Shown: positions 1 through 47,956, numbered from the stretch's first letter. The stretch: 64,000 nt of DNA from Bacteroidaceae bacterium (GCA_017554605.1 JAFZIA010000003.1:1688-65687); one strand, 5' to 3'. Translations and numbers: made by a program. The notes: generated by a model from the letters alone, not told the origin.

Positions 1-917
1 CGGATTGCAATGGAAGTAGCTATGTAATTGGAGAAGAAGCGTTCTACAATTGCAACAGCCTTACAAGCATAACAATACCCAACAGCGTAACAACTATTGG
101 AAAATACGCGTTCTGCGAATGCAGCAACCTTGCAAGCATAACATCACTTATCACTGCCGACAAATTATTCGCAATAGATAGTTATGTATTCGAAGAAGAA
201 GTTAAGAACAATAGCACATTATACGTTCCCGCAGGCGCAAAAGCCACATACGCAGCAACAAGCGGTTGGAACGAGTTTAAGAATATAGTTGAGCTACCCT
301 CTACCGAGACATTCGACCTTACAGTCTCCGCAGCAAACTACGCTACACTCTATCTGGATTACAATGCAAGAATCCCCGCAGGCGTTGAGGTTTATACAGC
401 AAGCACAGTGGACGGCAACCGCCTTATGATGGAGCAGGTAACCGATATTCTTCCCGCAAACACAGGCGTAATTGTGAGAGCAGAGCAAGGCTCATACACA
501 TTTGAGCAGAGCTTTGAGGAGACCGAAGCAATTGAGAACAACCTGCTCCGTGGTTCAGTAGAGGACGAATACATCACACCCGAGAAAGGCGCAAGATACT
601 ACGTTCTTTCAATGAAGGACGGTGTTGTGGGAATGTACAAGGATGCACTCAGCGGTGGCACATTCAAGAACAATGCACACAAGGCTTACCTTGTACTTAA
701 AGCCAACATTGGCATCTACGACGAGGAGGTTAACACCCAGAATCCCGGCGTGCAGCTAAGCAACAGCTACTACTTCGATTTTAGCGGTACAACAGCAATA
801 GAGCCCGTTATAAACGAGGTTGAAGACAACATCTACTACGACCTCAGCGGCCGTCGCGTGGAGAACCCCACACAAGGTATTTATATTGTGAACGGTAAAA
901 AGGTATTGGTAAAATAA
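1..917 (+). CDS. BspA-type leucine-rich-repeat surface protein, C-terminal part (5' end outside window), with a short T9SS-like C-terminal tail
   Basis: Frame 3 is open from position 3. LRR-like text reads ...FYNCNSLTSITIPNSVTTIGKYAFCECSNLASI... and ...TLYVPAGAKATYAATSGWNEFKNIVE. The C-terminus is ...IYYDLSGRRVENPTQGIYIVNGKKVLVK*. Confidence 0.75.
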   Translation, partial: DCNGSSYVIGEEAFYNCNSLTSITIPNSVTTIGKYAFCECSNLASITSLITADKLFAIDSYVFEEEVKNNSTLYVPAGAKATYAATSGWNEFKNIVELPSTETFDLTVSAANYATLYLDYNARIPAGVEVYTASTVDGNRLMMEQVTDILPANTGVIVRAEQGSYTFEQSFEETEAIENNLLRGSVEDEYITPEKGARYYVLSMKDGVVGMYKDALSGGTFKNNAHKAYLVLKANIGIYDEEVNTQNPGVQLSNSYYFDFSGTTAIEPVINEVEDNIYYDLSGRRVENPTQGIYIVNGKKVLVK

Positions 918-942
918 AGCATACTACTTACTACAATAGATT

Positions 943-984
943 ATCCGCGAGCTTTTCAAACAAAGAAAAGCTTGCGGATTTTTT
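943..984 (+). terminator. Rho-independent terminator after the LRR gene
   Basis: 15-bp stem atccgcgagcttttc / gaaaagcttgcggat with 1 mismatch, 7-nt loop, followed by TTTTT. Confidence 0.6.
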
Positions 985-1429
985 CAGCCCCTCTTATTGT
1001 ATTTTTTATCACCCAGACCAGTGCTTTTGTTATTTTGTTTACATTTTTGCTCAACAGACTCACAACCAATTGAATCTCTAATAGTTAACATTCACAAAAA
1101 CAAAGAAAAAAGCGTCGACACTCTGCGAAAGTTGAAAAAAACGCAACTTTCGCAGAGTATCGGGGTGTTTCTTGGAAAAATATTATATTTTTGCCACAGC
1201 CTTCTCGTCATTGTTCAGGAATCCACAGCCATACGTTGAAATAATCTCATAGCTTGCGAAGCACCCCGAAGGTATGACAAGGGAAGAAACAAGCACAGGG
1301 CTGAAAATTACCACTTTTGGCTTGAAAGACGGAATGTACAGCGACCAGATTATAGCAAAGCTCAATATGGACGACCTCTTCCAATCCTGACCTACAAATT
1401 TACAATAGCAGAACCGTGATTCATACATT

Positions 1430-3925
1430 ATGAAAAGAGAGATAATCGCATTGATATTGGCAACCGTGCTACTGGCAGGCTGCACACCCTGTAAGGAAAC
1501 CTCAACAGCACTCTACGACAGTGGCGTATCGCTACAGCTTGCGCAACAGCGCAAGGAGAGCATAAAGGAACTTGCATACTCGCTGTACTTCTCGATTCCC
1601 AAGGAGAAAAGCAGCCCCGTCGAGGGAGTTGCCGAGATTAGCTTCTCTGTAGACAAGCTCCAGGAAATTATCGTCGACTACCGCGAGACGGAGCGCATTA
1701 AGGAGGTGACTGTAAACGGAAAAGCCACAGCATACACCCTGAGGAACGAACATATCATCATTCCGCAGGGAGCGGTGGAGAGGGGGAAGAACAGCATCAA
1801 GGTTACATTCACCGCTGCCGACCAATCGCTCAACCGCAACGAGGAGTTCCTGTACACCCTCCTTGTCCCCGACAGGGCACGCACCCTTTTCCCCTGCTTC
1901 GACCAGCCCGACCTAAAGGCAATATTCACCCTTACACTGGAGCTTCCTGCCCAGTGGACAGCTGTAGCGAACAGCGCAGTAGCCGTCGAGGAGCAGATCG
2001 ACAGCCGCAAAAGGATAACATTCAACCCCACAGAGCCGTTGAGCAGCTACCTCTTCTCCTTTGTGGCGGGAGAGTTCAAGCGCGAACTATACGACAACGG
2101 CAAGCACTCCTTTGCTGCATACTACCGCGAGACCGACCCCAAGCGCATAGCGCAGCTACCCGTCATATTCGGGCAGGTGGCCGATGCACTCGACTGGCTC
2201 GAGGAGTACACGGGCGTGGCCTATCCCTTTGCGAAATATGACTTTGTGATACTGCCGGGATTCCAATATGGAGGAATGGAGCACACGGGAGCCACTCTCT
2301 ACAACGACACGCAACTGTTCCTGAGCGAGCACCCCACACCCGACGAGGAGCTGCGCCGCGCCGAACTCATCGCACACGAGACAGCGCATATGTGGTTCGG
2401 CGACCTTGTGACAATGCAGTGGTTCGACGACGTGTGGACAAAAGAGGTGTTTGCCAACTACTTTGCAGCACGTATAACAGAGCCGCAGTTCCCCGATATA
2501 AACCACCGCCTGGGGTGGCTCAAGAGCATTGTCACACCAGCACTCACCGAAGACCGTACAGCCGGAGGAACATCCATCAAGCAGCCACTCGACAATATGT
2601 GCAACGCAGGGCTCATATACAACAGCATAATATACAACAAGGCACCCGTGACGCTCGAAAAGCTCATAGAGATTATGGGCGAGGAGGCCTTCCGCGAGGG
2701 AATAAACGAGTACCTCACCCGCTACGCCTACGGCAACGCCACGTGGGACGACCTTATAGCTATCCTTGACAGCAGATGCAGCGCCGACCTTGCCGCACTC
2801 AGCGATGCGTGGGTGAACCAGCGGGGAATGCCGAGCATAGCCTTTACACTTTGCAACGACACTCTCATTGTGCGGCAGAGCGACCCCTATGGCAGGAATC
2901 TTGTGTGGCAGCAGAGCTTTGGCGTGACGCTCGGAGGCGACGAGTGCAAGGAGATGGAAATAAGCATCACCGACACGCTCCACAAGATACCCCTTGCCCA
3001 AAAACCCGATTACATACTCCCCAACAGCGACGGAAGAGGATACGGATATTTCATATACGACAGCAGGAGCCTTGAATGGACGCTCAACAACTGGCACAAC
3101 ATCGGCGACGAGGTGTGCCGTCAGGCGCAACTGATGAACCTGCACGAAGAGTACCAGCACCGCAGGTTGAGTGCAGAAGAGTGGCTCGCGAGCCTCATCG
3201 CAGGAACAGAGAAGGAGAGGAACACGCTTGTAGCATCGAGCATATGCAGCTACCTCTACAGGCCATTGATAGAGGTCAGCGACCCACAAAGAGAGAAAGA
3301 GCTGCTGGCACTTGCCAACGGACACCCGTTGAAGAGCTTCCGCTTGCAGATAATGCGCACGCTCATTTCGGCTGCAACGTCGCACGAGGTATGCAATGAG
3401 CTATATACCATCTGGAAAGAGAAGAGCCACCCGCTGCTTAGCGAGAATGACTATATCACACTGGCCTACGAGCTCTCCCTGCGCTTCCCCGACAGGCACA
3501 AGGAAATTACAGATACACAGCGCGAGAGAATAAACAACCCCGACCGCCTGCGTCAGTTCGACTTTATCTCGCGGGCCGTGACACCCGACACACTGGAGCA
3601 AGAGGCACTGTTCCGCTCGTTGCTGCTACCCGAGAACCGCCGCATAGAGCCGTGGACACTGAAGACATTGGGCTATCTGTGCCACCACACACGCCGCGCA
3701 CAGGCAGTAGGATACATACGTCCCGCCCTCGATGCCCTGCAGCATATACAGCGCACAAGCGACATATTCTTTCCGCAGAACTGGGCACGTACCCTGCTCA
3801 AGGAGCAACACAGCAAAGAGGCCGTGCGCGAGCTGGAGCAATTCCTGGGCGACAACCCCCACTACCCCGCTCTGCTCAAGAACAAGATTCTGCAGGCAGC
3901 GTGGCCCTATCCGATGGTGAGGTAA
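1430..3925 (+). CDS. M1-family zinc aminopeptidase (aminopeptidase N-like), probable lipoprotein
   Basis: HETAHMWFGD (HExxH) with a downstream WTKE... Glu, a GGMEHTG exopeptidase-like motif, and an N-terminal LLAGC lipobox. Confidence 0.9.
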   Translation: MKREIIALILATVLLAGCTPCKETSTALYDSGVSLQLAQQRKESIKELAYSLYFSIPKEKSSPVEGVAEISFSVDKLQEIIVDYRETERIKEVTVNGKATAYTLRNEHIIIPQGAVERGKNSIKVTFTAADQSLNRNEEFLYTLLVPDRARTLFPCFDQPDLKAIFTLTLELPAQWTAVANSAVAVEEQIDSRKRITFNPTEPLSSYLFSFVAGEFKRELYDNGKHSFAAYYRETDPKRIAQLPVIFGQVADALDWLEEYTGVAYPFAKYDFVILPGFQYGGMEHTGATLYNDTQLFLSEHPTPDEELRRAELIAHETAHMWFGDLVTMQWFDDVWTKEVFANYFAARITEPQFPDINHRLGWLKSIVTPALTEDRTAGGTSIKQPLDNMCNAGLIYNSIIYNKAPVTLEKLIEIMGEEAFREGINEYLTRYAYGNATWDDLIAILDSRCSADLAALSDAWVNQRGMPSIAFTLCNDTLIVRQSDPYGRNLVWQQSFGVTLGGDECKEMEISITDTLHKIPLAQKPDYILPNSDGRGYGYFIYDSRSLEWTLNNWHNIGDEVCRQAQLMNLHEEYQHRRLSAEEWLASLIAGTEKERNTLVASSICSYLYRPLIEVSDPQREKELLALANGHPLKSFRLQIMRTLISAATSHEVCNELYTIWKEKSHPLLSENDYITLAYELSLRFPDRHKEITDTQRERINNPDRLRQFDFISRAVTPDTLEQEALFRSLLLPENRRIEPWTLKTLGYLCHHTRRAQAVGYIRPALDALQHIQRTSDIFFPQNWARTLLKEQHSKEAVRELEQFLGDNPHYPALLKNKILQAAWPYPMVR

Positions 3926-4053
3926 TAGGGAGATACGCCCAACACCCCGAAAGAAACAGACACTAAATTCATATCTGTGCAAGTTAATTTATTAGAACAG
4001 CAAATAACGCCCAATAATACACCGTAACGCAGGACGATAGAGATACAGTATTA

Positions 4054-4325
4054 TTAAGAAGCTGTTTAAATTTCTAAAAAAAGTATTTATTATATTGGAA
4101 GCCGTTATTTCGTTGTTTTTTATGTTCAAAATTGCCTGTTTTCTTCTTTCTCTCGGTTACGTAGCCCGCTACGCGCCCTCGAAAAATAATAAAACATTTC
4201 ACTTTTGCATTGCGCCAAAATAGGCTGCACTCGCCGAAAAACTGCAAGTAAACTTGCGTTTTGCTCGTTGGCAATATTTTTGACCTATAAAAAACTTAAC
4301 GATATAAATTTAAACAGCTTCTTAG
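4054..4325 (+). mobile_element. IR-bounded repeat element, copy A (MITE-like or inverton-like), ~272 bp
   Basis: Termini are ttaagaagctgtttaaattt ... aaatttaaacagcttcttag, a 19/20 inverted repeat. The interior matches the reverse complement of 42488-42683 and carries ~75 extra bp at about 4199-4275. Confidence 0.65.
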
Positions 4326-4636
4326 TCCAACAAGTCTTCAGCTTTAATATACGGCAATCAGCAAACAGAAAAAACGTGGGTGCTGTTATGGGTTACCGCG
4401 CTTTGAGGCTCTATGCTACCATCTGTTCGCAACAGACAATAGCCCACGCCAAGCAGTATATGGTGCAACCACGGTGTATGAATATATAACATAGACGTGG
4501 GCACTTTGTTCATTAATAGGTTGGATCTGTCTGTATTTCGGCGTAGGATAAAGACAAAATGCTATATGCCAAAATTAGCAGCAACCGCAGACGGTTACTG
4601 CATACAAATGTAGTGCAAAGCAGGAGAATAATAAAA

Positions 4637-4644
4637 TAAATTTG
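4637..4644 (+). promoter_or_regulatory. Candidate Bacteroidetes -7 box (TAAATTTG) for radA
   Basis: Exact match to TAnnTTTG, 67 nt upstream of ATG 4711. Confidence 0.4.
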
Positions 4645-4710
4645 AATAAAAAATGTTTGCGCTTGATAAAAAGCGTTGCAAGCATTATCTTAGCGGCTCA
4701 ATTTGATATT

Positions 4711-6078
4711 ATGGCTAAAGAAAAGACAATTTTCCTGTGCAACGACTGTGGATATGAGTCGCCCAAATGGGCGGGAAAGTGCCCGTCGTGCGGTGCGTGG
4801 AACAGCTTGGTCGAGAAGAGGGTGCGTACAGGCGGTTCGGGTGGAGCGGCTCTCCAGTCCTCCTTTTCGGCCCAGTCGCAGCCTGTGCTCATAGACACTG
4901 TCTCCACCGATGAACTTCCGCGCATAAGTATGGGCGACGCTGAGCTCGATCGTGTGCTTGGCGGCGGGCTTGTGCCCGGTTCGCTTGTACTGCTCGGCGG
5001 TGAACCGGGTATCGGAAAATCGACCCTCATTCTGCAAACTGTGCTGCGTCTATCGGGGCAAAGGATTCTATATGTCTCGGGCGAGGAGAGCGTGCAGCAG
5101 ATTAAGCTGCGTGCCAACCGCATCGAATACTCGCAGTCGCAATGTATGATTGTGTGCGAGACACAGCTCGAGACTGTATTTACGCACATAAAGAATGTGC
5201 AGCCGCAGATTGTGATAATAGACTCCATACAGACTATGTGCAGCGAGACTGTCGACTCCTCACCGGGCAGTATGTCGCAGGTGCGCGAGTGTACGGCTAT
5301 GCTGCTGAAGTATGCCAAGGAAAATAATGTCCCTGTTATTCTCATTGGCCACATTACAAAGGACGGTGCAATAGCCGGGCCTAAAATCCTTGAACACATT
5401 GTAGACGTTGTAATACAGTTCGAGGGCGACCAGCACCACCTCTACCGTGTGCTGCGCTCTATAAAGAACCGCTTCGGCAGTACTGCTGAACTTGGAATAT
5501 ATGAGATGCGCCGCGAGGGACTGCGGCAGGTGAACAACCCATCGGAACTGTTGCTGAGCGAGCGTCACAGTGGAATGAGCGGCGTTGCAATAGCATCGGC
5601 AATAGAGGGCGTGAGTCCTTTCCTCATAGAGGTACAGGCGCTTGTGGGCAGCGCTGTCTATGGTACTCCGCAGCGCTCGTCGACGGGCTTCGACACGCGC
5701 CGTATGAATATGCTGCTCGCTGTGCTTGAGAAACGAGTGGGTTTCAAGCTGGCACAGAAGGACGTTTACCTGAATATTGCTGGAGGATTGAGGGTGAACG
5801 ACCCTGCAATAGATCTCTCGGTGATAAGCGCCATCTTGTCGAGTAATATGGACGTGGAGATTGAGCCTACGGTATGTATGGCGGGTGAGGTCGGACTATC
5901 GGGCGAGATACGTCCAGTAAACAGGATAGAGCAGCGCATTGCCGAGGCTGCAAAGCTCGGCTTCAGCCGCATAATAGTTCCCAAGAGCAATATGAAGGGG
6001 CTCGATGCATCGCGCTTCGCAATAGAAGTGAAGCCGGTTGCCAAGGTCGAGGAGGCTTTCAGGCTAATCTTCGGATAG
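4711..6078 (+). CDS. radA: DNA repair protein RadA/Sms
   Basis: N-terminal zinc ribbon CNDCGYESPKWAGKCPSCGAWN, Walker A GGEPGIGKST, KNRFG motif and a Lon-like C-terminal domain. I prefer ATG 4711 over the TTG at 4642 used by the ORF track. Confidence 0.92.
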   Translation: MAKEKTIFLCNDCGYESPKWAGKCPSCGAWNSLVEKRVRTGGSGGAALQSSFSAQSQPVLIDTVSTDELPRISMGDAELDRVLGGGLVPGSLVLLGGEPGIGKSTLILQTVLRLSGQRILYVSGEESVQQIKLRANRIEYSQSQCMIVCETQLETVFTHIKNVQPQIVIIDSIQTMCSETVDSSPGSMSQVRECTAMLLKYAKENNVPVILIGHITKDGAIAGPKILEHIVDVVIQFEGDQHHLYRVLRSIKNRFGSTAELGIYEMRREGLRQVNNPSELLLSERHSGMSGVAIASAIEGVSPFLIEVQALVGSAVYGTPQRSSTGFDTRRMNMLLAVLEKRVGFKLAQKDVYLNIAGGLRVNDPAIDLSVISAILSSNMDVEIEPTVCMAGEVGLSGEIRPVNRIEQRIAEAAKLGFSRIIVPKSNMKGLDASRFAIEVKPVAKVEEAFRLIFG

Positions 6079-6121
6079 TGGCGGTAAAAGGTTTTAGCAC
6101 CGACAGTTAAATGTTAATCAG

Positions 6122-7717
6122 ATGACACACGAATATCAGATAAGAGTACTGCCGCAACAGGCGGCAAACGAGCAGATGCTCAAGGAGTACATTGCCGGCG
6201 AGAAGGGGTTTGCTTTCCGCTCGATAAATGGAGTGCGCGTGTTGCGTCGCAGTATCGATGCGCGCCAGCGTACAATATATGTCAATCTTACCGTAAGGGT
6301 ATATGTGAATGAACAGCCCAAGGACGACGAGTATGTGAAAAAGGAGTACCCTTGTGTCGACGGGGCGCAGCGTGTCATTGTGGTGGGCGCAGGCCCTGCC
6401 GGACTCTTTGCAGCCCTCAAACTCATTGAACAGGGGCTGTGTCCCATTGTGGTGGAGCGCGGAAAGGACGTGCGTTCCCGCAAGGTTGATGTTGCCAATA
6501 TAAGCCGCACGCATACGGTGGATCCTGAGTCGAACTATTGCTTTGGCGAGGGTGGAGCAGGTGCATACTCCGACGGTAAGCTCTACACACGAAGCAAAAA
6601 GCGAGGAAGTATCGAAGGGGTGTTGAATACATTCTGCCAGTTCGGTGCAAGCCCCGCGATTCTTGCCGATGCGCACCCGCATCTTGGAACGGACAAGCTG
6701 CCGAGGATAATAGAGAATATGCGCAACGCTATCCTTGAGTGTGGCGGCGAGGTGCATTTTGAGACACGAATGGAGGAACTGCTCATTAAGGGCGGACGCA
6801 TCTGCGGTGTACGTACCAATCGTGGCGAGTTCCTTGCTCCCTCAGTGATTCTTGCAACGGGACACTCGGCCAAGGACGTCTACCGCAATCTGCACGCGAG
6901 CGGTGTTGCCCTCGAGGCTAAGGGTATTGCCGTGGGTGTGCGTCTGGAGCACCCCTCGGCGCTGATTGACCAAATTCAGTACCACAATCCCGCCGGGCGC
7001 GGAAAATATCTTCCCGCAGCGGAATACAGCTTTACTACACAGGTCGACGGACGCGGTGTGTACAGTTTCTGTATGTGTCCGGGCGGTGTCGTGGTGCCGT
7101 CGGCGTCGGGAAGCGAGGAACTGCTCGTGAACGGTATGTCACCGTCGCACCGTGGCGGCAAATGGAGCAACTCGGGAATGGTGGTGCAGATTAACTGCGA
7201 GGATATAGATCACCCCGATATGTTTATCGATGTAGATGGCTTTGAACCTGTAGATGCTGCGTCGCCCCTGCGCGTGATGGCTTTCCAGGAGAGGCTTGAG
7301 CGTCTCTGCTGGATTATGGGCAATCGCCGTCAGACGGCTCCTGCGCAGCGTATGACCGACTTTGTGCGCGGCAAGCTGAGCTACGACCTTGCCGAGTCCT
7401 CGTATGCTCCGGGACTTATTTCCTCGCCTATGCACTTCTGGCTGCCCAAGTTCATCTCGGGTCGCCTGCAGAGGGGATTCGACAATTTCGGGCGTACGTC
7501 GCGCGGTTTTCTTACCCGAGAAGCAACAGTCATAGGTGTGGAGACGCGAACATCGTCGCCCGTGCGCATTGTGCGCGACGGCGAGACATTGCAGCACGCG
7601 CAGATTGCAGGACTCTTTCCCTGTGGCGAGGGTGCGGGATATGCGGGCGGCATTGTGTCGGCTGCTGTCGACGGTGAGCGTTGCGCGGTGTCGGCTGCCG
7701 AGTATATAAAAGGCTGA
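6122..7717 (+). CDS. FAD/NAD(P)-dependent oxidoreductase (COG2509-like FAD-dependent protein)
   Basis: Rossmann dinucleotide motif VIVVGAGPAGLFAA. Length and C-terminal GEGAGYAGGI motif are typical of this family. Confidence 0.8.
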   Translation: MTHEYQIRVLPQQAANEQMLKEYIAGEKGFAFRSINGVRVLRRSIDARQRTIYVNLTVRVYVNEQPKDDEYVKKEYPCVDGAQRVIVVGAGPAGLFAALKLIEQGLCPIVVERGKDVRSRKVDVANISRTHTVDPESNYCFGEGGAGAYSDGKLYTRSKKRGSIEGVLNTFCQFGASPAILADAHPHLGTDKLPRIIENMRNAILECGGEVHFETRMEELLIKGGRICGVRTNRGEFLAPSVILATGHSAKDVYRNLHASGVALEAKGIAVGVRLEHPSALIDQIQYHNPAGRGKYLPAAEYSFTTQVDGRGVYSFCMCPGGVVVPSASGSEELLVNGMSPSHRGGKWSNSGMVVQINCEDIDHPDMFIDVDGFEPVDAASPLRVMAFQERLERLCWIMGNRRQTAPAQRMTDFVRGKLSYDLAESSYAPGLISSPMHFWLPKFISGRLQRGFDNFGRTSRGFLTREATVIGVETRTSSPVRIVRDGETLQHAQIAGLFPCGEGAGYAGGIVSAAVDGERCAVSAAEYIKG

Positions 7718-7791
7718 ATTTGAATTTATATACACCAATAAAGCCACTGCATTTGCAGTGGCTTTATTGGTGTATATATATGTAAGCAATA

Positions 7792-8754
7792 TTAGATGTG
7801 GCTTGTAAGTATCTTCATCTTGCCGTTGGGAACAATGTCGAGTGCAGTGGCTGTTGCTGGAACGAGTATCGACTCGCCTTGGCGCACCTGCATCTGCTCG
7901 CCGTTGTTGTCGGTTATAGTGCCTTCGCCCTCGGTGCATATTACAATCACAAACGAGTCGAGCGACGCAAGGTCGATGGTTTGTGCCTTTGTAAGATTGT
8001 AGAGTGCTGTTGTAAAGTAGGGGCACGATACAAGCTCGGTGCGCTGGTCGTCGGCTGCCTCGTAGTGTGTGCGGTAGTCGTCCTGTACGCTGTAGTCGAT
8101 GACGGCCTTGCTCTGCTCGGTGTGCAGCTCGCGGGGATTTCCGTTGGCATCTACGCGGTTGAAGTCGTATATGCGGTAGGTGATGTTCGATGTCTGCTGA
8201 ATCTCGGCAATGAATGCGCCTGCTCCAATGGAGTGTATGCGTCCGGCAGGAAGGAAGAAGAGGTCGCCTGCGTGTATGTCATACTCGGCCAAAAGGTCGG
8301 TGATAGTGTTGTCGGCAATGCTTGCCTCGTACTCCTCGGGGGTGACCTTCTTTGCAAAGCCCGAGCGCAATGATGAGCCTGGGTCGGCATCTACCACGTA
8401 CCACATCTCGGTCTTTCCCTTGGACTGGTGGCGCTCCCACGCCTGCTCGTCGTTGGGGTGTACCTGTATCGACAGGTCCTGACGCGCGTCGATGAATTTT
8501 ATCAGCAGGGGAAACTCCTCGCCGAAGCGCTCGTAGTTGGCTGCTCCCAGCAATTTTGCTCCGTCGCGCTTGATGAGCTCGGGGAGCATCATACCTGCAT
8601 CGGGACCTTCGGCAACTATCGACTCATTGTCCTTTACGCCCGATATTTCCCAGCTCTCGCCCACCTGTTTCTGGTCGGATACTATGCCTTTGTAGGGTAG
8701 AATTTTCTCTCCGCCCCACAGCATCGATTTTAGTATTGGTTTGAATTTGTACAT
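7792..8754 (-). CDS. manA: Class I mannose-6-phosphate isomerase
   Basis: N-terminus KPILKSMLWGGEKI, the SIQVHPND and KTEMWYV cupin metal-site motifs, and LPAGRIHSIG. Confidence 0.85.
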   Translation of the reverse strand: MYKFKPILKSMLWGGEKILPYKGIVSDQKQVGESWEISGVKDNESIVAEGPDAGMMLPELIKRDGAKLLGAANYERFGEEFPLLIKFIDARQDLSIQVHPNDEQAWERHQSKGKTEMWYVVDADPGSSLRSGFAKKVTPEEYEASIADNTITDLLAEYDIHAGDLFFLPAGRIHSIGAGAFIAEIQQTSNITYRIYDFNRVDANGNPRELHTEQSKAVIDYSVQDDYRTHYEAADDQRTELVSCPYFTTALYNLTKAQTIDLASLDSFVIVICTEGEGTITDNNGEQMQVRQGESILVPATATALDIVPNGKMKILTSHI

Positions 8755-34745: not shown

Positions 34746-37700
34746 ATGTTAAGAAAACTTTGTTTGATGTTCACCGCCCTCTTGGCGGTAGCTGTGATGA
34801 GAGTCGAGGCTGCTGAGCCTGTCTTCTCCACAGAGGGTGCCCCTGTTTGGCACTGGATTCAGTTCAATGCAGGTTCGAACCTGCTTAAGGACAATGGAAA
34901 CGGCAATAATCTTAAGACAGTCACTGTTGCCGACCGTAACGACGATGCAAAATGGATTCTTGTAGGTAACGCCGATGCGTTCTACCTCAAGAGTGCCAAT
35001 GGCAACTACGTTTCTTGGAGCGGCAGCCGCTACGCTGCAACTTCTGATGCTAATGGCAAGGCTACTCTCAAGCTGCGTTTGAAGGACGATGGCAAATACG
35101 AGATAAAGCGTGCCGATAATGAAGCTGAGAAATATATGAATCAGTGGGGTGGTACAGGCGCTGGTGTAGAGCTTGGCGAGTGGAACAGTAACGACAACAA
35201 CAATGCTCTCTCATTTGTGGTTGCTCCCGAGGTGCCTATGTGCTCTACCGAGGAACTCCCCGAGTGGTACTACATACAGTTCAGTACAGGTTCGGGCGTC
35301 CTCAGCGACAAGGGAGCTGGCAACGAGGTGCTCACTGCTGCAAAAGCCGAGGAAGATGCCAATCTGTGGCAGTTGGTAGGCGAGAAGAGCAACTTCTACC
35401 TCAAGAGCAAGGCCGGTAACTACCTCTACCGCAAGGACGACGGCTTCTATGCTACAACAAACGACGCAGCGTCAAAGACAATGCTTGCAATTGACGAGAG
35501 AGTTCTTGGTTACTGGGATATTCACCGTGTGGGTGAGTCTAAGGGCCTCAACCAGTTCCAGGGTGCAGGTGTAGGCCGCCGACTCTCTGAGTGGACTGCC
35601 GGTGACACCAACAACCGTTTGCACTTCGTATATTTCCCCGTAGAGCCCGAGGTATACGAGCCTAACGTGTTCTCTACCGAGGAGTCGCCCGTATGGCACT
35701 CTGTAGAGTTCAAGACAGGTGGTCACTTCCTCTCGGACAAGGGTAACGGACAGAACCTTACAACAACTGCTGCTGCCGAGGCCGATGCACAGTTGTGGAT
35801 GTTCATCGGTAAGCCCGAGAACTTCAAGATGAAGAACAGGACTGGCAACTATGTAACCTGGAACAGTGGAGCTTCGCGCTTCGCATCATCGTCTGCTGCT
35901 GCCGATGCTGTGGAGTTGAGTTTCGTAAAGGGTACAACCGACGGTACTTGGGAACTCCAGCGTGTGGGTAGCAACAAGTGTCTCAACCAAAATGGCGGTA
36001 CTGGCGTAGGTGTCTCTTTGGGTGAATGGAATGCAGGAGATGCTAACAACCCCGTATATCTCAATCTTATCGACGAGAGCACACTTGAAAGCTATATAGA
36101 GCCTGTATTCAGCAACGACGATACTGACAACTGGTTTATGATTAAGTTTGCCAAGAATGGCAACCACCTTTCATCGGGTGGCGAGGGCAACCAGGCTGTT
36201 ACCGCATTGATGAAGAACGTGAAGTCGCAGTGGTGGAAATTTGTCGGTACAGCCGATAACTTCCAGCTCGTAAACAAAGATGGCTGCTACGCTACAATGA
36301 AGGCAGGTACAGCAACCAACGGACAGACAAGCAACCACCTGCTCTATATGCAGTCAACAGCCGATGAGCACGGTTTCCGCATCGAAAAATCGACACGCGC
36401 AAACTACACCGATGCATACGAGATCCGCTACAACGGCAAGGACGGCAACCAGAACTCGTTCAACCAGTGGGGTGGTGCAAATGCCGGCGTATCTATCGGT
36501 CTTTGGACTGCACACAGCGACGACAACAACCCTCTTTACATATATATTCCTGCTGCTAACCTTGCAAGTGTATTCGACATCGAGGGAATCGAGAACTATA
36601 CTCCCGAGAACCCCCTCACACTCTGGTACAAGAATGCGGCAAGCAATATGAATGTGAGCGACCAGTGGATGGAGTATTCACTCCCCATCGGTAACGGACA
36701 GTTCGGTGCAAGCATCTTCGGTGGTGTTGCACGCGAGCAGGTACAGTTCAACGAAAAGACACTGTGGAGCGGTACAAAGAACGACAAGAGCTCTGAGTAC
36801 GGCGACTACGAGAACTTCGGTAGCGTATATATCAACGACATAAGCGAAATCTTCGGCGAGGGCAAGAGCGTAAAGAACTACTATCGTCAGCTCGACCTCT
36901 CTAACGCAACTGCAAGCGTACACTACAGCAGCACCGACGGTTCAATCAACTTTACACGCGAATACATAGCAAGCAACCCCGACAAGGTGGTGGCTATGCG
37001 CCTCACAGCCGACAAGCCCGGAAACATCAGCATCAATGTTACATTTGAGGCTGGCCGTCCCGGATTGCGTGCTACTACCACTTACAGCAACGGTACAGCA
37101 TCGTTTGCAGGAAAATTGGAGACAATATCATACAATGCTCTTGTAAAGGTAGTTCCCACAAACGGAACAATGACAACCGACGAGAAGGGTATCACAGTGA
37201 AGGGTGCCGATGAGGTTCTTATCATCTTGGGTGGAGATACCGACTTTGATGCTTACAACCCCAACTATGTTTCGGCTACCGAGGAGCTTCCCGCCCGCGT
37301 TGAGGCAAGAGTGAACAGCGCTGCTGCAAAAGACTGGAACACTCTCTACACAGCACACGTTGAGGATTTCCAGCACTATTTCGACCGTTGTAGCTTTGAG
37401 CTTGCTGGTGCTGCAAATACAATGCCCACCGACGACCTCGTAAGAGAGTATGCTAAGCGTACAACAGGTATGGAGTCGTATGCTCTTATGCTTGAGCAGA
37501 TGTACTTTGCTTACGGCCGTTACCTCGAGATTTGTTCTTCACGTGGTGTAGACCTCCCCAGCAACCTTCAGGGTATTTGGAACAACAGTTCAGAGCCTGC
37601 ATGGAATGCTGACATTCACGCAAACATCAATGTTCAGATGAACTACTGGCCCGCAGAGCCCACCAATATGAGCGAAATGCACTTGCCTTTCCTTAACTAT

Positions 37701-39590
37701 ATCATCAATATGGCAAACAGCGCCGAGTGGAAGGCATTGGCCCAGAAGAACGGTGCCACCCGTCCCGAGGCTTGGACATTCTTGACAGAGAACAACATCT
37801 TCGGTGGTTTCGGTAGCTTTGCGTCGACAGCGTTCATCAACAACGCTTGGTACTGCTCGCACTTGTGGCAGCACTACCGTTACACTCTTGACAAGGAGTT
37901 CCTTACACGTGCATTCCCTGCAATGTGGGGCGCATCGTTGTTCTGGGTAGAGCGTGTTGTTTACAATGAGCAGGACGGTACATACGAGTGTCCCAACGAG
38001 TACTCTCCCGAGCACGGTCCCGGTGCACAGAATGCTACAGCACACTCGCAGCAGCTTGTTTGGGAGTTGTTCGACAATACTCTCCAGGCTATCGAGATTT
38101 TGGGTGCTCAGAATCTGGGAATTGCCGCTGAGGATATTGATGCTCTCAAGGACCGTTTCTCAAAGCTCGATACAGGTCTTGCAACCGAGACTTACAACGG
38201 CGATTGGGGCAATGCCATCGCTGCCGGCTCAAAGCTCCTGCGCGAGTGGAAGTACAGCTATTATACAGCAGGACAGAACGGTCACCGTCATATGTCGCAC
38301 CTTATGTGTCTCTATCCCTTTGCACAGGTTACAGGCGAGAGCGAGTACTTTGAGGCTGCTATAAACTCTATGCTCCTCCGTGGCGATGCTTCTACCGGCT
38401 GGTCAATGGGTTGGAAGATTAACCTCTGGGCACGTGCATTGGACGGCAACCACTCACACGACATTCTCGAGCTTGCATTGCGTCACCACAGCGTGAGCGG
38501 TGGCGGTGTTTACTACAACCTCTACGACAGCCACTCACCCTTCCAGATTGACGGTAACTTCGGTGCTTGTGCAGGTATTGCCGAGATGCTCTTCCAGAGC
38601 CACAGCGACGTGCTGCACATTCTTCCCGCTCTTCCCGACGTATGGGCCGAGGGTTCTATTAAGGGTCTCAAGGCTGTTGGCGACTTCACCGTTGATATTG
38701 ACTGGGCTGCAAACAAGGCTACAAAGGCTACAATCGTAAACAACCAGGGTACAAAGTGCGTAGTTAAGGCCGAGGGAATTACCAATGCACTTATAACAGT
38801 AAACGGTGTCGAGGTTACAGCACAGTGTGCAGGCGACGGTACTTGCTACATACCCTCGGGTAAGGGCGACAAGATTGTCATCGACTTTACTCAGGAGCCT
38901 ACTGTGCACCCCACATTGGTAATCCTCGACAGCGAGAAGAAGAATTTCTCGGCAACAGGAACATTCTCAAAGATTACCTACGAGCGTACACTCTCAGCTG
39001 GAAAGTACGGTACAATTGTTCTTCCTTTCGAGGTTGACGATGCTACAAAGGCAGCCTTTGAGTTCTATGCCTTCAAGGGCAAGGAGGACGGAGTATTGAA
39101 CTTTACTCAGGTTGACGCTCCCCAGGCCAATGTTCCCTACCTCTACAAGAACGTAGCCGATGTTCCTGCAACTGAACTTGTTTCGGTGGGCGACTATACA
39201 ATTGCTTCAACTGTTGTAAATAACACAGCCAACGGAGAGTGGAGTATGGTAGGTACATACAGAAACGTATCCATCACCGATGCCGACGAGCTGTTGGTAA
39301 CATACGCAGTATCGAACAATGCTATACGTAACTCATCGGCAGGTTTGAGCTTTGCTCCTTTCCGTGCATATTTTGTAGGTGAGAACTTCAACGACCTCTT
39401 CCCTGCAGATGCTCCCGCTAAGTCACTCTCTATAAGTATCACCGACAATGACGGCAATGTAACAAATATCACTCCAGTCGATATTGAGAATGTGAACGAT
39501 GGTATCTTCTACGACCTTTGTGGTCGCAGAGTAGAGCAGCCTGTTAAGGGTATCTACATTGTTAACGGTAAAAAAGTAATCATCAAATAA
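34746..39590 (+). CDS. Multidomain secreted GH95 glycoside hydrolase (alpha-L-fucosidase/galactosidase family) with four N-terminal tandem modules and a T9SS-like tail
   Basis: Signal peptide. GH95 signatures are LWYKNAA...WMEYSLPIGNGQFGASIFGG...QFNEKTLWSG, LQGIWN...NADIHANINVQMNYWP, STGWSMGWKINLWARALDG and HSPFQIDGNFGACAGIAEMLFQSH. The C-terminus is ...GIFYDLCGRRVEQPVKGIYIVNGKKVIIK*. Confidence 0.9.
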   Translation: MLRKLCLMFTALLAVAVMRVEAAEPVFSTEGAPVWHWIQFNAGSNLLKDNGNGNNLKTVTVADRNDDAKWILVGNADAFYLKSANGNYVSWSGSRYAATSDANGKATLKLRLKDDGKYEIKRADNEAEKYMNQWGGTGAGVELGEWNSNDNNNALSFVVAPEVPMCSTEELPEWYYIQFSTGSGVLSDKGAGNEVLTAAKAEEDANLWQLVGEKSNFYLKSKAGNYLYRKDDGFYATTNDAASKTMLAIDERVLGYWDIHRVGESKGLNQFQGAGVGRRLSEWTAGDTNNRLHFVYFPVEPEVYEPNVFSTEESPVWHSVEFKTGGHFLSDKGNGQNLTTTAAAEADAQLWMFIGKPENFKMKNRTGNYVTWNSGASRFASSSAAADAVELSFVKGTTDGTWELQRVGSNKCLNQNGGTGVGVSLGEWNAGDANNPVYLNLIDESTLESYIEPVFSNDDTDNWFMIKFAKNGNHLSSGGEGNQAVTALMKNVKSQWWKFVGTADNFQLVNKDGCYATMKAGTATNGQTSNHLLYMQSTADEHGFRIEKSTRANYTDAYEIRYNGKDGNQNSFNQWGGANAGVSIGLWTAHSDDNNPLYIYIPAANLASVFDIEGIENYTPENPLTLWYKNAASNMNVSDQWMEYSLPIGNGQFGASIFGGVAREQVQFNEKTLWSGTKNDKSSEYGDYENFGSVYINDISEIFGEGKSVKNYYRQLDLSNATASVHYSSTDGSINFTREYIASNPDKVVAMRLTADKPGNISINVTFEAGRPGLRATTTYSNGTASFAGKLETISYNALVKVVPTNGTMTTDEKGITVKGADEVLIILGGDTDFDAYNPNYVSATEELPARVEARVNSAAAKDWNTLYTAHVEDFQHYFDRCSFELAGAANTMPTDDLVREYAKRTTGMESYALMLEQMYFAYGRYLEICSSRGVDLPSNLQGIWNNSSEPAWNADIHANINVQMNYWPAEPTNMSEMHLPFLNYIINMANSAEWKALAQKNGATRPEAWTFLTENNIFGGFGSFASTAFINNAWYCSHLWQHYRYTLDKEFLTRAFPAMWGASLFWVERVVYNEQDGTYECPNEYSPEHGPGAQNATAHSQQLVWELFDNTLQAIEILGAQNLGIAAEDIDALKDRFSKLDTGLATETYNGDWGNAIAAGSKLLREWKYSYYTAGQNGHRHMSHLMCLYPFAQVTGESEYFEAAINSMLLRGDASTGWSMGWKINLWARALDGNHSHDILELALRHHSVSGGGVYYNLYDSHSPFQIDGNFGACAGIAEMLFQSHSDVLHILPALPDVWAEGSIKGLKAVGDFTVDIDWAANKATKATIVNNQGTKCVVKAEGITNALITVNGVEVTAQCAGDGTCYIPSGKGDKIVIDFTQEPTVHPTLVILDSEKKNFSATGTFSKITYERTLSAGKYGTIVLPFEVDDATKAAFEFYAFKGKEDGVLNFTQVDAPQANVPYLYKNVADVPATELVSVGDYTIASTVVNNTANGEWSMVGTYRNVSITDADELLVTYAVSNNAIRNSSAGLSFAPFRAYFVGENFNDLFPADAPAKSLSISITDNDGNVTNITPVDIENVNDGIFYDLCGRRVEQPVKGIYIVNGKKVIIK
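34815..36560 (+). repeat. Four tandem ~145-aa protein-level repeats inside the GH95 gene (aa ~24-605)
   Basis: Each unit begins EP(V/N)FS(T/N)(E/D)..P.W..(I/V)(Q/E/K)F. Each contains D(A/S)(K/N/Q).W.(L/F)(V/I)G....F.(L/M)K(S/N)..GNY and (L/F/M)NQ(W/F/N)(G/Q)G.G.GV.(L/I).(E/L)W....(D/N)NN. Confidence 0.8.
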
Positions 39591-41077: not shown

Positions 41078-42058
41078 CTAAGGCAATTGCTCCCACGCAA
41101 GGGCGCTTGCTCCAAGAATGGCTGCGTCGGAGTCGGGCAGTTGCGAGATTATTATCTTTGTCTTTCCCTTGAATGTGTGCAGCACACTCTTGTCGAGCGA
41201 GCGTTGCAGGGGGGCGAGCAGCAGGTTGCCGGCACGCGACAGTCCTCCAAAGAGTATTATTGCCTCGGGGCTCGAGAAGGCTACAAAATCGGCTATCGCC
41301 TCGCCGAGCATCTTGCCCGTGTATTCGAACACGTCCAATGCTATCTTGTCTCCCTTGAGCGCTGCTTCGTACACGTCGCGCGAGGTTATTCCCTTAATGT
41401 CGCGCAGCAGGCTGGGGGTGTCGAGCGTTTCGAGCATCTCCTTGGCAGTGCGCACTACACCCGTTGCCGAGCAGTATGCCTCCAGGCAGCCTTTACGTCC
41501 GCAGCCGCACAGCCGGCCCTCTTCTCCGCGCACCATCGTCACGTGTCCCAGCTCGCCGGCAAAGCCGTCGCTGCCGTAGACCAGCTCGCCGTTTATCACA
41601 ATGCCGCTGCCCACACCCGTGCCAAGCGTTATGACAATGAAATTCTTCATTCCTTTGGCTGTGCCGTATGTCATTTCGCCTATTGCTGCCGCGTTGGCGT
41701 CGTTTGTCACGCGGACGGGTATCCCGCTGCACTCCGAGAGCATCTGGGCAAGCGGGAGCACTCCTTTCCACGGCAGGTTGAACGCGTGTTCAATGTTACC
41801 GGTGTAAAAGTTGCTGTCGGGAGCGCCCACGCCAATGCCGCGAATCTTGCCCTTGCTGCCGGTTATCTCTATGAGCCGTCCGATAACCTCGTTTATGGCG
41901 TTGATATACTCCCCGAAAGTGGGGTAGGCGTTTGTGGCGATGCTCTCGTCGCGTGCAAGAATCTTGCCGCGGGCATCTACAATGCCTATCTTGGTCCCCG
42001 TTCCGCCAATATCAATGCCAATCACTCTGTTCTTTTCGACATTCATACGCGAAGGCAT
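41078..42058 (-). CDS. ROK-family sugar kinase (glucokinase-like)
   Basis: VIGIDIGGTGTKIGIV ATP motif and the ROK Cys cluster GHVTMVRGEEGRLCGCGRKGCLEAYCS. Confidence 0.85.
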   Translation of the reverse strand: MPSRMNVEKNRVIGIDIGGTGTKIGIVDARGKILARDESIATNAYPTFGEYINAINEVIGRLIEITGSKGKIRGIGVGAPDSNFYTGNIEHAFNLPWKGVLPLAQMLSECSGIPVRVTNDANAAAIGEMTYGTAKGMKNFIVITLGTGVGSGIVINGELVYGSDGFAGELGHVTMVRGEEGRLCGCGRKGCLEAYCSATGVVRTAKEMLETLDTPSLLRDIKGITSRDVYEAALKGDKIALDVFEYTGKMLGEAIADFVAFSSPEAIILFGGLSRAGNLLLAPLQRSLDKSVLHTFKGKTKIIISQLPDSDAAILGASALAWEQLP

Positions 42059-42325
42059 TTATTTTATGCCATTCCCGTGGGCTACGGCAGCGTCGGCCTG
42101 TGCCTTCTCCTTTATGCCGTGTGCAACCTCGGCCACGGCGTCGGCAACGTCGGCTCCCGCATCTGCCATCTTTAGCTTTATGTCGCACCCTTTGTTGTGC
42201 ATAACTTCGCACATTGCGCCCAACCACGCTTTTGTACGCTCACTCCTGGCACATTTGTATGCCATTGCACCTGCTATGGCACCCAGTGCCATTCCCACCC
42301 AGAATTTAGGATTGCTCAGAATCAT
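42059..42325 (-). CDS. Small hypothetical protein (88 aa; one N-terminal hydrophobic helix, Ala/Asp-rich tail; YtxH-like at best)
   Basis: The ORF's stop codon directly abuts the ROK start (TAAATG). N-terminus is FWVGMALGAIAGAMAY. Confidence 0.45.
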   Translation of the reverse strand: MILSNPKFWVGMALGAIAGAMAYKCARSERTKAWLGAMCEVMHNKGCDIKLKMADAGADVADAVAEVAHGIKEKAQADAAVAHGNGIK

Positions 42326-42487
42326 AGTCTCTGAAAATTAAAGGTTAGTACTGTTTTTTTGGGGCGGTTTTTTCTTCCGTTTCCCGAGAAAATAACGAGT
42401 GGGGCAGGCGATAAGTTTGCCCTTGGGGCGCAATTAACAGAATTGGACTCTTTGGAATTAATTTTGACAAAAATAATCCAACGGAAA

Positions 42488-42683
42488 TTAAGAAGCTGTT
42501 TTAAATTTATATCGTTAAGTTTTTTATAGGTCAAAATTGGAATGTTTTATTATTTTTCGAGGGCGCGTAGCGGGCTACGTAACCGAGAGAAAGAAGAAAA
42601 CAGGCAATTTTGAACACAAAAAACAACGAAATAACGGCTTCCAATATAATAAATACTTTTTTTAGAAATTTAAACAGCTTCTA
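42488..42683 (-). mobile_element. IR-bounded repeat element, copy B (short form, ~196 bp), inverted relative to copy A
   Basis: The reverse complement of 42541-42682 matches 4057-4198 with a single mismatch. 42488-42536 matches the reverse complement of the copy A right arm with one 1-nt indel. Termini form a ~20-bp inverted repeat. Confidence 0.65.
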
Positions 42684-42689
42684 AAAACG

Positions 42690-44189
42690 ATGATGAATAT
42701 GAAATTTCTTTTGGGGATTCTGTGCCTTAATTTCCTGGTTACCGGTGCTTATGCAACGTCTTTAAGTGACTCAACGAATGTATCGTTTGCAGATATCCCT
42801 TTCCATAACCTGACTAAAGATTCGTTGAAGATTCTGGACATCGGCAACAGCTACACAACCGATGCGACACACTATATCCCTCAAATAACCAATGCAGCAG
42901 GCGCAATAGGCGGATATTCCCTTTATAGCGCTGTGCGAAGTTCGGCTTCGTACAAAAGTTGGGTGAATATATATAACGACTGTGACTTTATGGAATATAG
43001 AGTCAACAAGGTAGCAGGCGATGAGATCGAAGGGGTGAATGCCGGTGTTGGCGAGATAGGTGACGGAGTCCTTTTCAGGCAGGCACTGGAGAGAGGAAAT
43101 TGGGACTTGATTATAATCCACCAGGTCAGCCTTTATGCCAATGATTTTGATTTGTGGGGAGGAGACACTGCCGGTGGCTATTTGAACGAATTGTTAACTA
43201 TTCTGTGCGAGACCAACCCACAGGCATCAATAGGCATTTATCTTATCCATAGTTATAGGGGAGATTACAAGAACAACACCGAAGGCTCCTCCTTGGCAAG
43301 GTGGCAGAATGTTGCCGACGCGATTAAAAAGCTCAAATTGAATTACGGCATTGATTTTGTGATACCTTATGGCACTGCTGCACAAAATCTTCGCGCCTCT
43401 TCCCTGAATGACGAGTATGACTTTTCCTATGATGGAGCACATCTTTCCGACGGTATTGGCGATTATGTAGCGGCCTGTTGCTATTGGGAGGCGCTGCTTG
43501 CACCCCGTTTCGGCAGTATTATTGGAAATAGCTGGCGTTACACAAACCTGAATGAGAATACTGCGGGTGTCAAGAAAATAACCGACGAAACAGTATCTTT
43601 TGCCCAAAAGGCAGCCGTGTTGGCAATGAGAAATATGTACCAACTGACAGACGTGGACAGTTTTGATACATATATGCAACTGCCTGCCGAGTATGTCTGC
43701 TACGATAATAGAATCATAGGTTACAATTATAACAAACCGATGGGTTGCATAACTATTCCCGACAGCATTGTGGGCATTACCCGTGGGGTGTTCAACGACT
43801 GTAAGGAGGTTAGAAGACTTATCTTGCCAGCGGGCTTGCGGTCTTTGGGCAATTATGCATTCAACAATTGTACAGCCATTGAAGCCATCACTTCTTTTAT
43901 TCCGGGAGATGAACTGTTCCCGATTAACGAGAGTGTCTTCAACGGTGTCGACAAGAGTGCTTGTACACTATATGTACCTTACGGTTCAAAAGAAGCATAC
44001 ACCTCAACAGATGGTTGGAAAGATTTTTACAACGTCGTGGAGGGGGATTTATCTGATATAAGTGAAATTAAGAGTGATGATTGGAATGTGGACACAGAAA
44101 TTGTCTATGACATGAATGGTAGAAGAACAAAGGGCTCTACAAATGGCATTCACATCATCAATGGCAAAAAAGTATTGGTAAAGCAATAA
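42690..44189 (+). CDS. Secreted fusion protein: DUF4886/SGNH-like hydrolase domain + BspA-type LRR + T9SS-like tail
   Basis: Signal peptide. LKILDIGNSYTTDA (GDS(L)-like block I position) and ...SYDGAHLSD (block V-like D-x-x-H). LRR text is ITIPDSIVGITRGVFNDCKEVRRLILPAGLRSLGNYAFNNCTAIEAI and TLYVPYGSKEAYTSTDGWKDF. The C-terminus is IVYDMNGRRTKGSTNGIHIINGKKVLVKQ*. Confidence 0.7.
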   Translation: MMNMKFLLGILCLNFLVTGAYATSLSDSTNVSFADIPFHNLTKDSLKILDIGNSYTTDATHYIPQITNAAGAIGGYSLYSAVRSSASYKSWVNIYNDCDFMEYRVNKVAGDEIEGVNAGVGEIGDGVLFRQALERGNWDLIIIHQVSLYANDFDLWGGDTAGGYLNELLTILCETNPQASIGIYLIHSYRGDYKNNTEGSSLARWQNVADAIKKLKLNYGIDFVIPYGTAAQNLRASSLNDEYDFSYDGAHLSDGIGDYVAACCYWEALLAPRFGSIIGNSWRYTNLNENTAGVKKITDETVSFAQKAAVLAMRNMYQLTDVDSFDTYMQLPAEYVCYDNRIIGYNYNKPMGCITIPDSIVGITRGVFNDCKEVRRLILPAGLRSLGNYAFNNCTAIEAITSFIPGDELFPINESVFNGVDKSACTLYVPYGSKEAYTSTDGWKDFYNVVEGDLSDISEIKSDDWNVDTEIVYDMNGRRTKGSTNGIHIINGKKVLVKQ

Positions 44190-47878: not shown

Positions 47879-47893
47879 CAAATAAAGATATAT

Positions 47894-47939
47894 ACAACAG
47901 AAAAAAAGCAGCCTTGCGGGGCTGCTTTTTTTCTGTTGT
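47894..47939. terminator. Bidirectional terminator between convergent thrA and the DUF349 gene
   Basis: 20-bp stem acaacagaaaaaaagcagcc / ggctgctttttttctgttgt with A/T runs on both arms. Confidence 0.7.
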
Positions 47940-47956
47940 ATATAAGAGAATAAGTC

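Follow-up and report, generated by a model that had tools for sequence, protein, structure and literature searches.

Within the 64,000-nucleotide stretch of Bacteroidaceae DNA analysed here (the window), two nearly identical sequences bounded by inverted repeats face each other in opposite orientation across some 38 kb. This raises the question of what kind of element these sequences represent, how they came to lie at both sites, and whether the DNA between them has been rearranged. The proteins encoded in the window match MBR5892042 to MBR5892073, all from one MAG. The analysis set out below suggests strongly that both elements are copies of a small non-coding transposon (MITE), very probably moved by an IS5-family transposase that is encoded elsewhere.

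Anatomy and surroundings of the two copies

The ends of the two elements were set by comparison across the family. Copy A occupies positions 4058-4321 on the plus strand (264 bp, a long form of mosaic composition) and copy B positions 42492-42681 on the minus strand (190 bp, the short canonical form). A 16-bp terminal inverted repeat (TIR), GAAGCTGTTTAAATTT, is common to both copies and is perfect in copy A, where it is found at 4058-4073 (+) and 4306-4321 (-). In copy B the TIR at 42666-42681 (-) is perfect, its end lying 8 nt before the DUF4886/LRR_5 start codon (ATG, 42690), and the TIR at 42492-42508 (+) carries a 1-nt insertion (GAAGCTGTTTTAAATTT). The TIR core AGAAGCTGTTTAAATTT was located in the window at 4057 (+), 4306 (-), 42666 (-) and, with the 1-nt insertion, at 42491 (+). 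These four matches, all of which are at copy ends, compare with 0.18 expected, and none of 100 shuffles reached four.

A preliminary description of this DNA had reported a near-identical, inverted-repeat-bounded element present twice in opposite orientation. A repeat search of the window bears this out, the arm 4054-4207 being 97% complementary to 42532-42685 and the arm 4278-4314 being 100% complementary to 42500-42536. The inverted termini described there as a 19/20 TIR bounding 4054-4325 are also real; the ends were, however, placed a few bases too far out, and the outer bases are in fact the flanking TWA triplets. With a 75-nt block set aside, copies A and B differ by three substitutions and one indel (~98% identity). 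The substitutions are A/G at 4122, which is the single long-arm mismatch noticed previously, T/C at 4199 and C/A at 4202. The 1-nt indel previously seen in the other arm is placed near 4311 and corresponds to the extra base in one copy B TIR. The additional block of copy A, first estimated at about 75 bases, is exactly 75 nt long; its best placement is at 4208-4282 (+), between TTTTG repeats, rather than at 4199-4275, and it marks a long subfamily. Two smaller features were likewise found where they had been described: the GC hairpin CGTAGC-CC-GCTACG at 4160-4173 (+), which forms the apex of the fold-back of the whole element, and the box TATTTTTG at 4275-4282, a perfect TAnnTTTG that borders the 75-nt block and has no perfect counterpart in copy B.

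Both copies are intergenic, again as originally stated, and the ORFs that overlap them are only short and of low complexity. The left neighbour of copy A is an M1 aminopeptidase gene (1430-3925, +) and the right neighbour is radA (about 4663-6078, +). On one side of copy B are an 88-aa ORF and a ROK kinase gene, both on the minus strand, and on the other is the DUF4886 + BspA-LRR gene (42690-44189, +). The segment bracketed by the inverted copies (4322-42491), which runs from radA to the 88-aa gene, is 38 kb long.

Two further kinds of repeat were observed in the window. Palindromes at gene 3' ends, at 7724-7781 (28-nt arms, 96%) and 47889-47944 (25-nt arms, 100%), are probably intrinsic or bidirectional terminators. 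A 1614-aa ORF (34746-39590), which is GH95-like in homologous contigs, contains a diverged 41-nt motif three times at spacings of 846 and 477 nt, and this triplet probably reflects repeated protein domains.

Insertion sites, family and parent element

A scan for the TIR in one genome per species returned at least 114 loci, mostly from uncultured Bacteroidales, and the matches listed often comprise several contigs per MAG and lie near contig ends. Pairing of TIRs in the window and in the fetched loci gave 44 bounded elements among the matches listed, with the element proper starting GAAGCTG and ending CAGCTTC. Direct identical 3-bp flanks (TTA/TTA or TAA/TAA) were found at 28 of these 44 and inverted flanks (TAA/TTA) at just three; for TWA/TWA pairs among the matches listed, the 28:3 ratio has a binomial p of about 2e-6 against a 1:1 null. 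The other 13 TIR pairs are without a clean TWA duplication, some being spurious pairs at relaxed mismatch and some having TCA or TGA flanks. Flanks that merely continued the inverted repeat should be mostly of the inverted type, and independent flanks should show both types about equally often. Neither expectation fits the observed ratio; the direct flanks are a 3-bp TWA target-site duplication.

The flanks of copy B are of this direct type, with TAA at 42489-42491 on the side of the 88-aa gene and TAA at 42682-42684 on the DUF4886 side. Copy A has TAA/TTA flanks. Its TAA on the M1-peptidase side (4055-4057) is half of the duplication made by an insertion between the M1 peptidase and Na_Ca_ex genes, which is intact in contig L115, and the TTA on the RadA side (4322-4324) has no direct-repeat match to it. 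The mismatch would follow from copy A being a hybrid of two insertions (see below); mismatched flanks at copy A are the signature of a recombinant or chimeric element.

An empty counterpart exists for one insertion. In contigs L125, L128 and L129 a UbiA gene lies directly upstream of the gene for the identical 88-aa protein, and the spacer reads ccaatgtttatta-TTA-atttccgttgg. Contig L128 is 100% identical to window positions 41949-42491, and the match stops exactly at the TAA beside copy B. For the UbiA gene of the same MAG as the window (MBR5892497.1), the contigs end inside the left arm of a MITE and read ...CAGCTTC-TAA-taataaacattgg; as judged from these contig ends, this TAA is the other half of the TTA duplication next to copy B. 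Together, the empty site and the two TTA halves suggest that the UbiA/88-aa spacer took an insertion at TTA, which duplicated this triplet. None of the contigs examined has the UbiA/88-aa site filled and retains both original flanks. In the same spacer of contigs L123 and L124, a replacement of about 45 nt, situated some 215 nt before the 88-aa gene on its upstream side, contains a solo TIR (TTAGAAGCTGTTTTAAATTTC) and no full MITE; it may be a truncated copy or the remnant of an excision or deletion.

At the M1 peptidase locus of a related lineage, where Na_Ca_ex, an acetyltransferase gene and gyrB follow, the spacer is 181 nt long and has no MITE. The strain-level relatives of the window, L115 and L116, have a short-form MITE with TAA/TAA flanks in the spacer between the M1 peptidase and Na_Ca_ex genes. 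The MITE-less spacers of L138 and L139 are too diverged to give a base-level empty site at this locus, where synteny alone is informative. In all, at least eight distinct MITE flanks were counted in contigs of the same species. Diverged copies of 72-76% identity were also seen in other spacers of this species (8093-8194 in both L115 and L116, and 611-810 in L128), one of them between the acetyltransferase gene and gyrB; these copies indicate older insertion waves.

The form of about 190 bp is the canonical one. Among the matches listed, many Bacteroidaceae and Bacteroidales MAGs of ruminant and horse gut origin, including yak, buffalo, sheep, goat and cattle hindgut, contain full-length relatives of it (70-88% identity), with several per genome and often at contig ends. 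Other subfamilies with the same TIR, 83-203 bp long and with differing interiors, were found among the matches listed in Paludibacteraceae, Muribaculaceae and other Bacteroidales MAGs, and for Alistipes contigs only single TIR matches were noted among them. Many single 17-mer matches from outside the Bacteroidota (Serratia, Nostoc, Neisseriaceae) were discounted, being no more than expected by chance. A scan of metagenomes with a 44-nt internal core gave four contig-end fragments with new flanks and no full sites.

The 75-nt block of copy A was also considered as a one-off insertion, which was rejected because the block recurs as a subfamily feature: it is present in L118 (between RadA and DUF4886), in L120 (196-459, upstream of uvrB) and, in diverged form, in L135. 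No other sequence match to the block was found, and alone it has no significant structure (z = -0.9). Some loci contain paired elements. In L120 uvrB lies between two MITEs in direct orientation, one long (196-459) and one short (2645-2834), both with the left flank TCA, a layout that is either composite-transposon-like or a recombination product. Two MITEs are head-to-tail at the start of contig L025 (5-139 and 195-353), and L040 contains two 162-bp copies of another subfamily (5841-6002 and 6939-7100), 1.1 kb apart, with TTA and TAA duplications; the L025 and L040 pairs are local insertion clusters.

A screen of the ORFs beside the TIRs of the at least 114 loci returned mainly housekeeping genes, and a transposase from L092 and L104 only, which share an ORF for a 258-aa protein next to the TIR. 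This protein scores 221.7 bits over its full length on the model NF033580 'IS5 family transposase' (cutoff 110) and contains the DUF4096 (PF13340) and DDE_Tnp_1 (PF01609) domains. An intact IS is present in L136 (1386-2292). It is 907 bp long, with a TIR, GAAGCTGTTTAAATTTTAT, that matches at 19/19 positions and a TAA/TAA duplication, and its 258-aa ORF, at 1501-2277, encodes a transposase with 84% identity to the first homologue, the stop codon lying within the right TIR. The first 16 nt of the TIR of this IS are exactly the TIR of the window elements, and no sequence is shared further inward. Since only the TIR and no subterminal sequence is common to both, the MITE is not a simple deletion derivative of this IS. 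Further IS copies lie beside the TIR in L104, L092, L046 and L102. A search for relatives of the transposase at E <= 1e-40 gave 3031, mostly on contigs of 0.9-1.1 kb, a pattern typical of a multi-copy IS, and IS of the 907-bp type are abundant in gut Bacteroidales. A related IS is found on a Bacteroides fragilis plasmid from a cultured strain (L144, CP103159.1, about 291-1189), with the TIR GAAACTGTTTTGAATT, a TTA/TTA duplication and a transposase sharing 65.5% identity with the one encoded by the cognate IS. The L144 type of IS was also observed in L137, and its protein cluster has 1308 member sequences.

The window elements are therefore shorter than ~600 bp, encode no transposase, are bounded by TIRs and a target-site duplication of fixed length, are multi-copy, and are polymorphic for presence and absence. 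Moreover, their TIRs are common to an autonomous transposase-encoding element, the IS of L136, and the DDE transposase of this parent scores above a curated IS5-family model cutoff. It had been proposed beforehand that the element is a discrete, mobile unit bounded by inverted repeats and recently active or homogenised, and that a census of copies among genomes and a search for a full-length parent would be informative. The census did find many copies, a 3-bp target-site duplication and an empty site, and the search found an IS with the same termini and an IS5-family transposase. Instead of only two copies and no polymorphism, the genome population holds more than two copies and the insertion is polymorphic; instead of continuing as a larger segmental duplication, the identity stops at the element ends. 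The earlier suggestion that a factor in trans is needed is also in keeping with these data, as tblastn found no match to the cognate transposase in the 64-kb window and the parent IS was found elsewhere.

In the proposed mechanism, the IS5-family DDE transposase of the ~907-bp IS, supplied in trans, would recognise the 16-bp TIRs and integrate the element by cut-and-paste at TWA, where a 3-bp staggered cut would give the 3-bp duplication. We infer transposition itself from its footprints in the sequence, and mobilisation in trans by an IS active in the source genome likewise. Near-identical copies would then recombine homologously as a secondary consequence, since copies that are about 98% identical can act as portable homology.

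Mosaic copies, fold-back and alternative readings

Comparison with other contigs of the species shows that the two window copies are composed of arms found separately elsewhere. Contigs L115 and L116 are 100% identical to window positions 1-4207; their MITE is of the short form, with A at 4122 and without the 75-nt block, and is followed by Na_Ca_ex. In contigs L118, L130, L131 and L141, window 4054-7049 or 4054-8578 is present as its reverse complement and continues into the sequence from 42532 onward, with the order (L118 type) RadA(-)-TAA-(long MITE, G allele)-TAA-DUF4886(+). In copy A the left flank and left arm, with A at 4122, are those of L115, and the remainder (75-nt block, right arm, right flank) is that of L118. 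By these markers copy A is a hybrid of the M1-peptidase insertion and the RadA/DUF4886 insertion, each of which is intact elsewhere. The right arm of copy B, with the extra T in its TIR and a CCAA junction, is that found at the 88-aa flank in L120, L121 and L127, and its left arm (G allele) is that of L118. On its marker pattern, then, copy B is a mosaic as well, its right arm coming from the UbiA/88-aa insertion and its left arm from the RadA/DUF4886 insertion.

On a larger scale, a 146-kb contig (ERZ28019117:k141_269039) has the order uvrB-MITE-88aa, followed after about 38 kb by radA(-)-MITE-DUF4886, and in other contigs of the same species the 38-kb segment has the opposite orientation relative to the DUF4886 gene to that in the window. 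A MITE connects the 88-aa flank to uvrB in L120, to yceG in L121 and to DUF4886 in the window, and the left-arm SNP pattern differs in each case. Recombination between MITE copies would have to have taken place at least twice to give the window arrangement. The inversion that had been envisaged for this locus fits the 38-kb DNA between the copies, but no flipping of the element itself was seen.

The alternative junctions are, on balance, probably the result of genuine MITE-mediated recombination. It is also quite possible, at somewhat below even probability, that the MITE is real and that copy A, and perhaps copy B, is a chimeric join made across a collapsed repeat during short-read assembly. 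The window seems to come from a short-read MAG; if this MAG belongs to the RGIG set, to which contig naming and accession series point, assembly was with MEGAHIT defaults or IDBA-UD at k 90-124, co-assemblies included (PMC8199421). The window junctions at both copies are absent from every other contig displayed. Five of the seven contigs with an identical M1 peptidase read M1pep-MITE-Na_Ca_ex (L115, L116 and three grouped as similar), the other two break inside the MITE, and all six contigs with an identical RadA appear to read RadA-MITE-DUF4886 (two displayed and four grouped as similar). Breaks within the MITE were also seen in Logan and several ENA contigs, and the UbiA contig of the same MAG ends in one. 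Against a chimeric join, just 86 nt separate the A allele (4122) from the first base of the block (4208), and in copy B less than 100 nt lie between the CCAA junction and the G-type left arm. Given how assemblers work, markers combined over 86-100 nt, a distance below a final k of 124-141, should require real reads or molecules. In addition, a single inversion of the bracketed segment fits both novel junctions together, the 88-aa flank has three different partners in three assemblies with a different left-arm SNP haplotype in each, and inversions associated with MITEs and IS are documented in Porphyromonas gingivalis (PMC2575886). Whether the junctions represent a real inversion or a chimeric join, the identification of the elements as MITEs is unaffected.

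The elements are also characterised by a pronounced fold-back. The short form is predicted to fold into a near-full-length hairpin (DNA MFE -28.5 kcal/mol, z = -4.8), and in an alignment of 14 family members the consensus fold-back has 54 pairs, with 94.5% of cells paired as against 42-54% in slid controls. In the same alignment 15 pairs are changed on both sides, as against 5-7 in slid controls. In 500 column shuffles, neither the percentage paired, nor the covariation score, nor the number of pairs or of cells with changes on both sides ever came up to the observed value; for further pair types, the count did not stand out from the shuffles (265/500). The apical GC hairpin shows compensatory swaps between G:C and A:T across the family. 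The element is an imperfect palindrome, and the fold-back is conserved across genera.

Such conservation could mean that the fold-back has been exapted, either for cis-regulation by an RNA or DNA hairpin or for use as a portable promoter, and is kept by selection, with mobility secondary or extinct. We consider this unlikely. The whole-length hairpin, with 15 covarying pairs, is conserved at 70-88% identity across genera, copy B is inserted 8 nt from a start codon, and nAnnTTTG motifs point outward on both arms. However, searches against Rfam gave no match in the window at gathering thresholds and only noise at E <= 1 over 3950-4700, there is no T-run after the hairpin on either strand, and the -7-like motif is variable. 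Indeed, TAnnTTTG is not conserved in the MITE family, and with 48 occurrences in the window, where 36 are expected, a single match such as that in copy A is weak evidence. Palindromy is generic for MITEs and may serve transposition, and an exapted hairpin would in any case be compatible with the MITE explanation rather than exclusive of it.

Two candidate native Bacteroidota -7 boxes were observed outside the elements, TAAATTTG at 4637-4644 (+), just before radA, and TATTTTTG at 42475-42468 (-), before the 88-aa gene and 16 nt from the end of copy B. The position of the latter would mean that the MITE replaced the DNA where the -33 element of the 88-aa gene would lie, and, as copy B is 8 nt from the DUF4886 ATG, the DUF4886 transcript must start in copy B or read through it. 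A broader proposal, in which the family is a portable cis-regulatory module (hairpin and/or outward promoter) whose copies also drive frequent real strain-level inversions and neighbourhood shuffling, is doubtful; if true, it would make the family a major unrecognised source of structural variation and MAG misassembly in uncultured ruminant-gut Bacteroidaceae.

Invertible promoters (invertons) switch Bacteroides capsule and fimbrial loci, and the location of copy B invites the same reading, in which a recombinase would flip a segment of about 200 bp and so switch DUF4886 or a neighbouring gene. An inverted-repeat segment of about this length does lie directly upstream of the surface-protein-like DUF4886 + BspA-type LRR gene, 8 nt from its ATG, TAnnTTTG-like boxes face outward, and the family is common to several loci. 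This reading is nevertheless very improbable and was rejected. In all contigs examined the left arm is toward the M1 peptidase, DUF4886 or UbiA gene and the right arm toward the RadA or 88-aa gene, and none of these contigs has an in-place flip between the same flanks. Moreover, the flanks are direct 3-bp duplications and not extensions of the inverted repeat, an empty site exists, the same TIR bounds a transposase-encoding IS, and the -7-like motif is not conserved across the family. Finally, plain segmental duplication or gene conversion of intergenic DNA without mobility, which two ~98% identical copies 38 kb apart might have suggested, is scarcely credible and was rejected, as identity ends exactly at the TIRs, dozens of copies with TWA duplications lie in unrelated contexts and genomes, and both an empty site and a parent IS exist.

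Relation to known elements

The kind of element found here is ordinary, and the MITE family itself appears to be undescribed: a search of the literature, both for the TIR string and for MITEs of Bacteroidales, turned up no paper on it. To our knowledge, few Bacteroidales MITEs have been described outside Porphyromonas. The family and its parent form a widespread, apparently unnamed MITE/IS5 pair in gut Bacteroidales, recognisable by its TIR and TWA duplication, and offer a clean natural case for the study of trans-mobilisation and of fold-back constraints in this order. The main value of the finding is for annotation, MAG quality control and studies of structural variation in gut Bacteroidales. 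The MITE breaks or scrambles short-read assemblies; annotators can mask it, and users of MAGs should not trust synteny across it. If the alternative junctions are real, recombination at the MITE also inverts segments of tens of kilobases between strains.

The parent resembles short single-ORF IS of the IS5 family, presumably the IS1031/IS427/ISL2-like groups of ISfinder, in its length of 907 bp, its one 258-aa transposase, its short TIRs starting GA and its 3-bp TWA duplication; the window elements differ from such IS in that they encode nothing. The best relatives of the transposase outside Bacteroides (about 44% identity) are from Komagataeibacter, Agrobacterium and Rhizobium, which are the hosts of IS1031 and IS427. 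The Bacteroidales transposase clade has only 43-45% identity to these, and a subgroup drawn from such relatives would be tentative.

By analogy only, the TWA (TTA/TAA) 3-bp duplication and an IS5-related transposase are shared with the eukaryotic Tourist-like MITEs (PIF/Harbinger), from which the present elements differ in being bacterial, in having an unrelated TIR sequence and in lacking a Myb-like second protein. The Correia elements (CREE) of Neisseria and the enterobacterial ERIC sequences are comparable as palindromic intergenic repeats of 100-270 bp with a long hairpin that often abut gene starts and are a possible source of promoters or processing sites. Correia elements have a TA duplication and 26-bp TIRs, and we know of no cognate transposase for them, whereas a cognate IS is identified here and any regulatory activity is only putative. 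With the invertons of Bacteroides, also Bacteroidales, the elements have in common an inverted-repeat-bounded intergenic segment of about 200 bp beside a surface-protein gene; they are distinguished by direct target duplications, an empty site, a TIR shared with a transposase-bearing IS, and no in-place inversion seen.

The nearest described Bacteroidales examples are the MITEs of P. gingivalis, in which MITE239 and MITE700 carry the TIRs of ISPg3 and MITEPgRS those of ISPg1, and where MITEs and IS have been linked to inversion breakpoints (PMC2575886). The present family is set apart from these, by description, in having another TIR (GAAGCTGTTTAAA, in no paper searched) and another host clade, the uncultured Bacteroidaceae and relatives of ruminant and horse gut, and the window elements are without an internal minisatellite. 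In both cases, however, the elements are small, non-coding and of Bacteroidales, have TIRs that equal those of an IS (co-resident in P. gingivalis), and are multi-copy, strain-polymorphic and located at inversion and translocation breakpoints.
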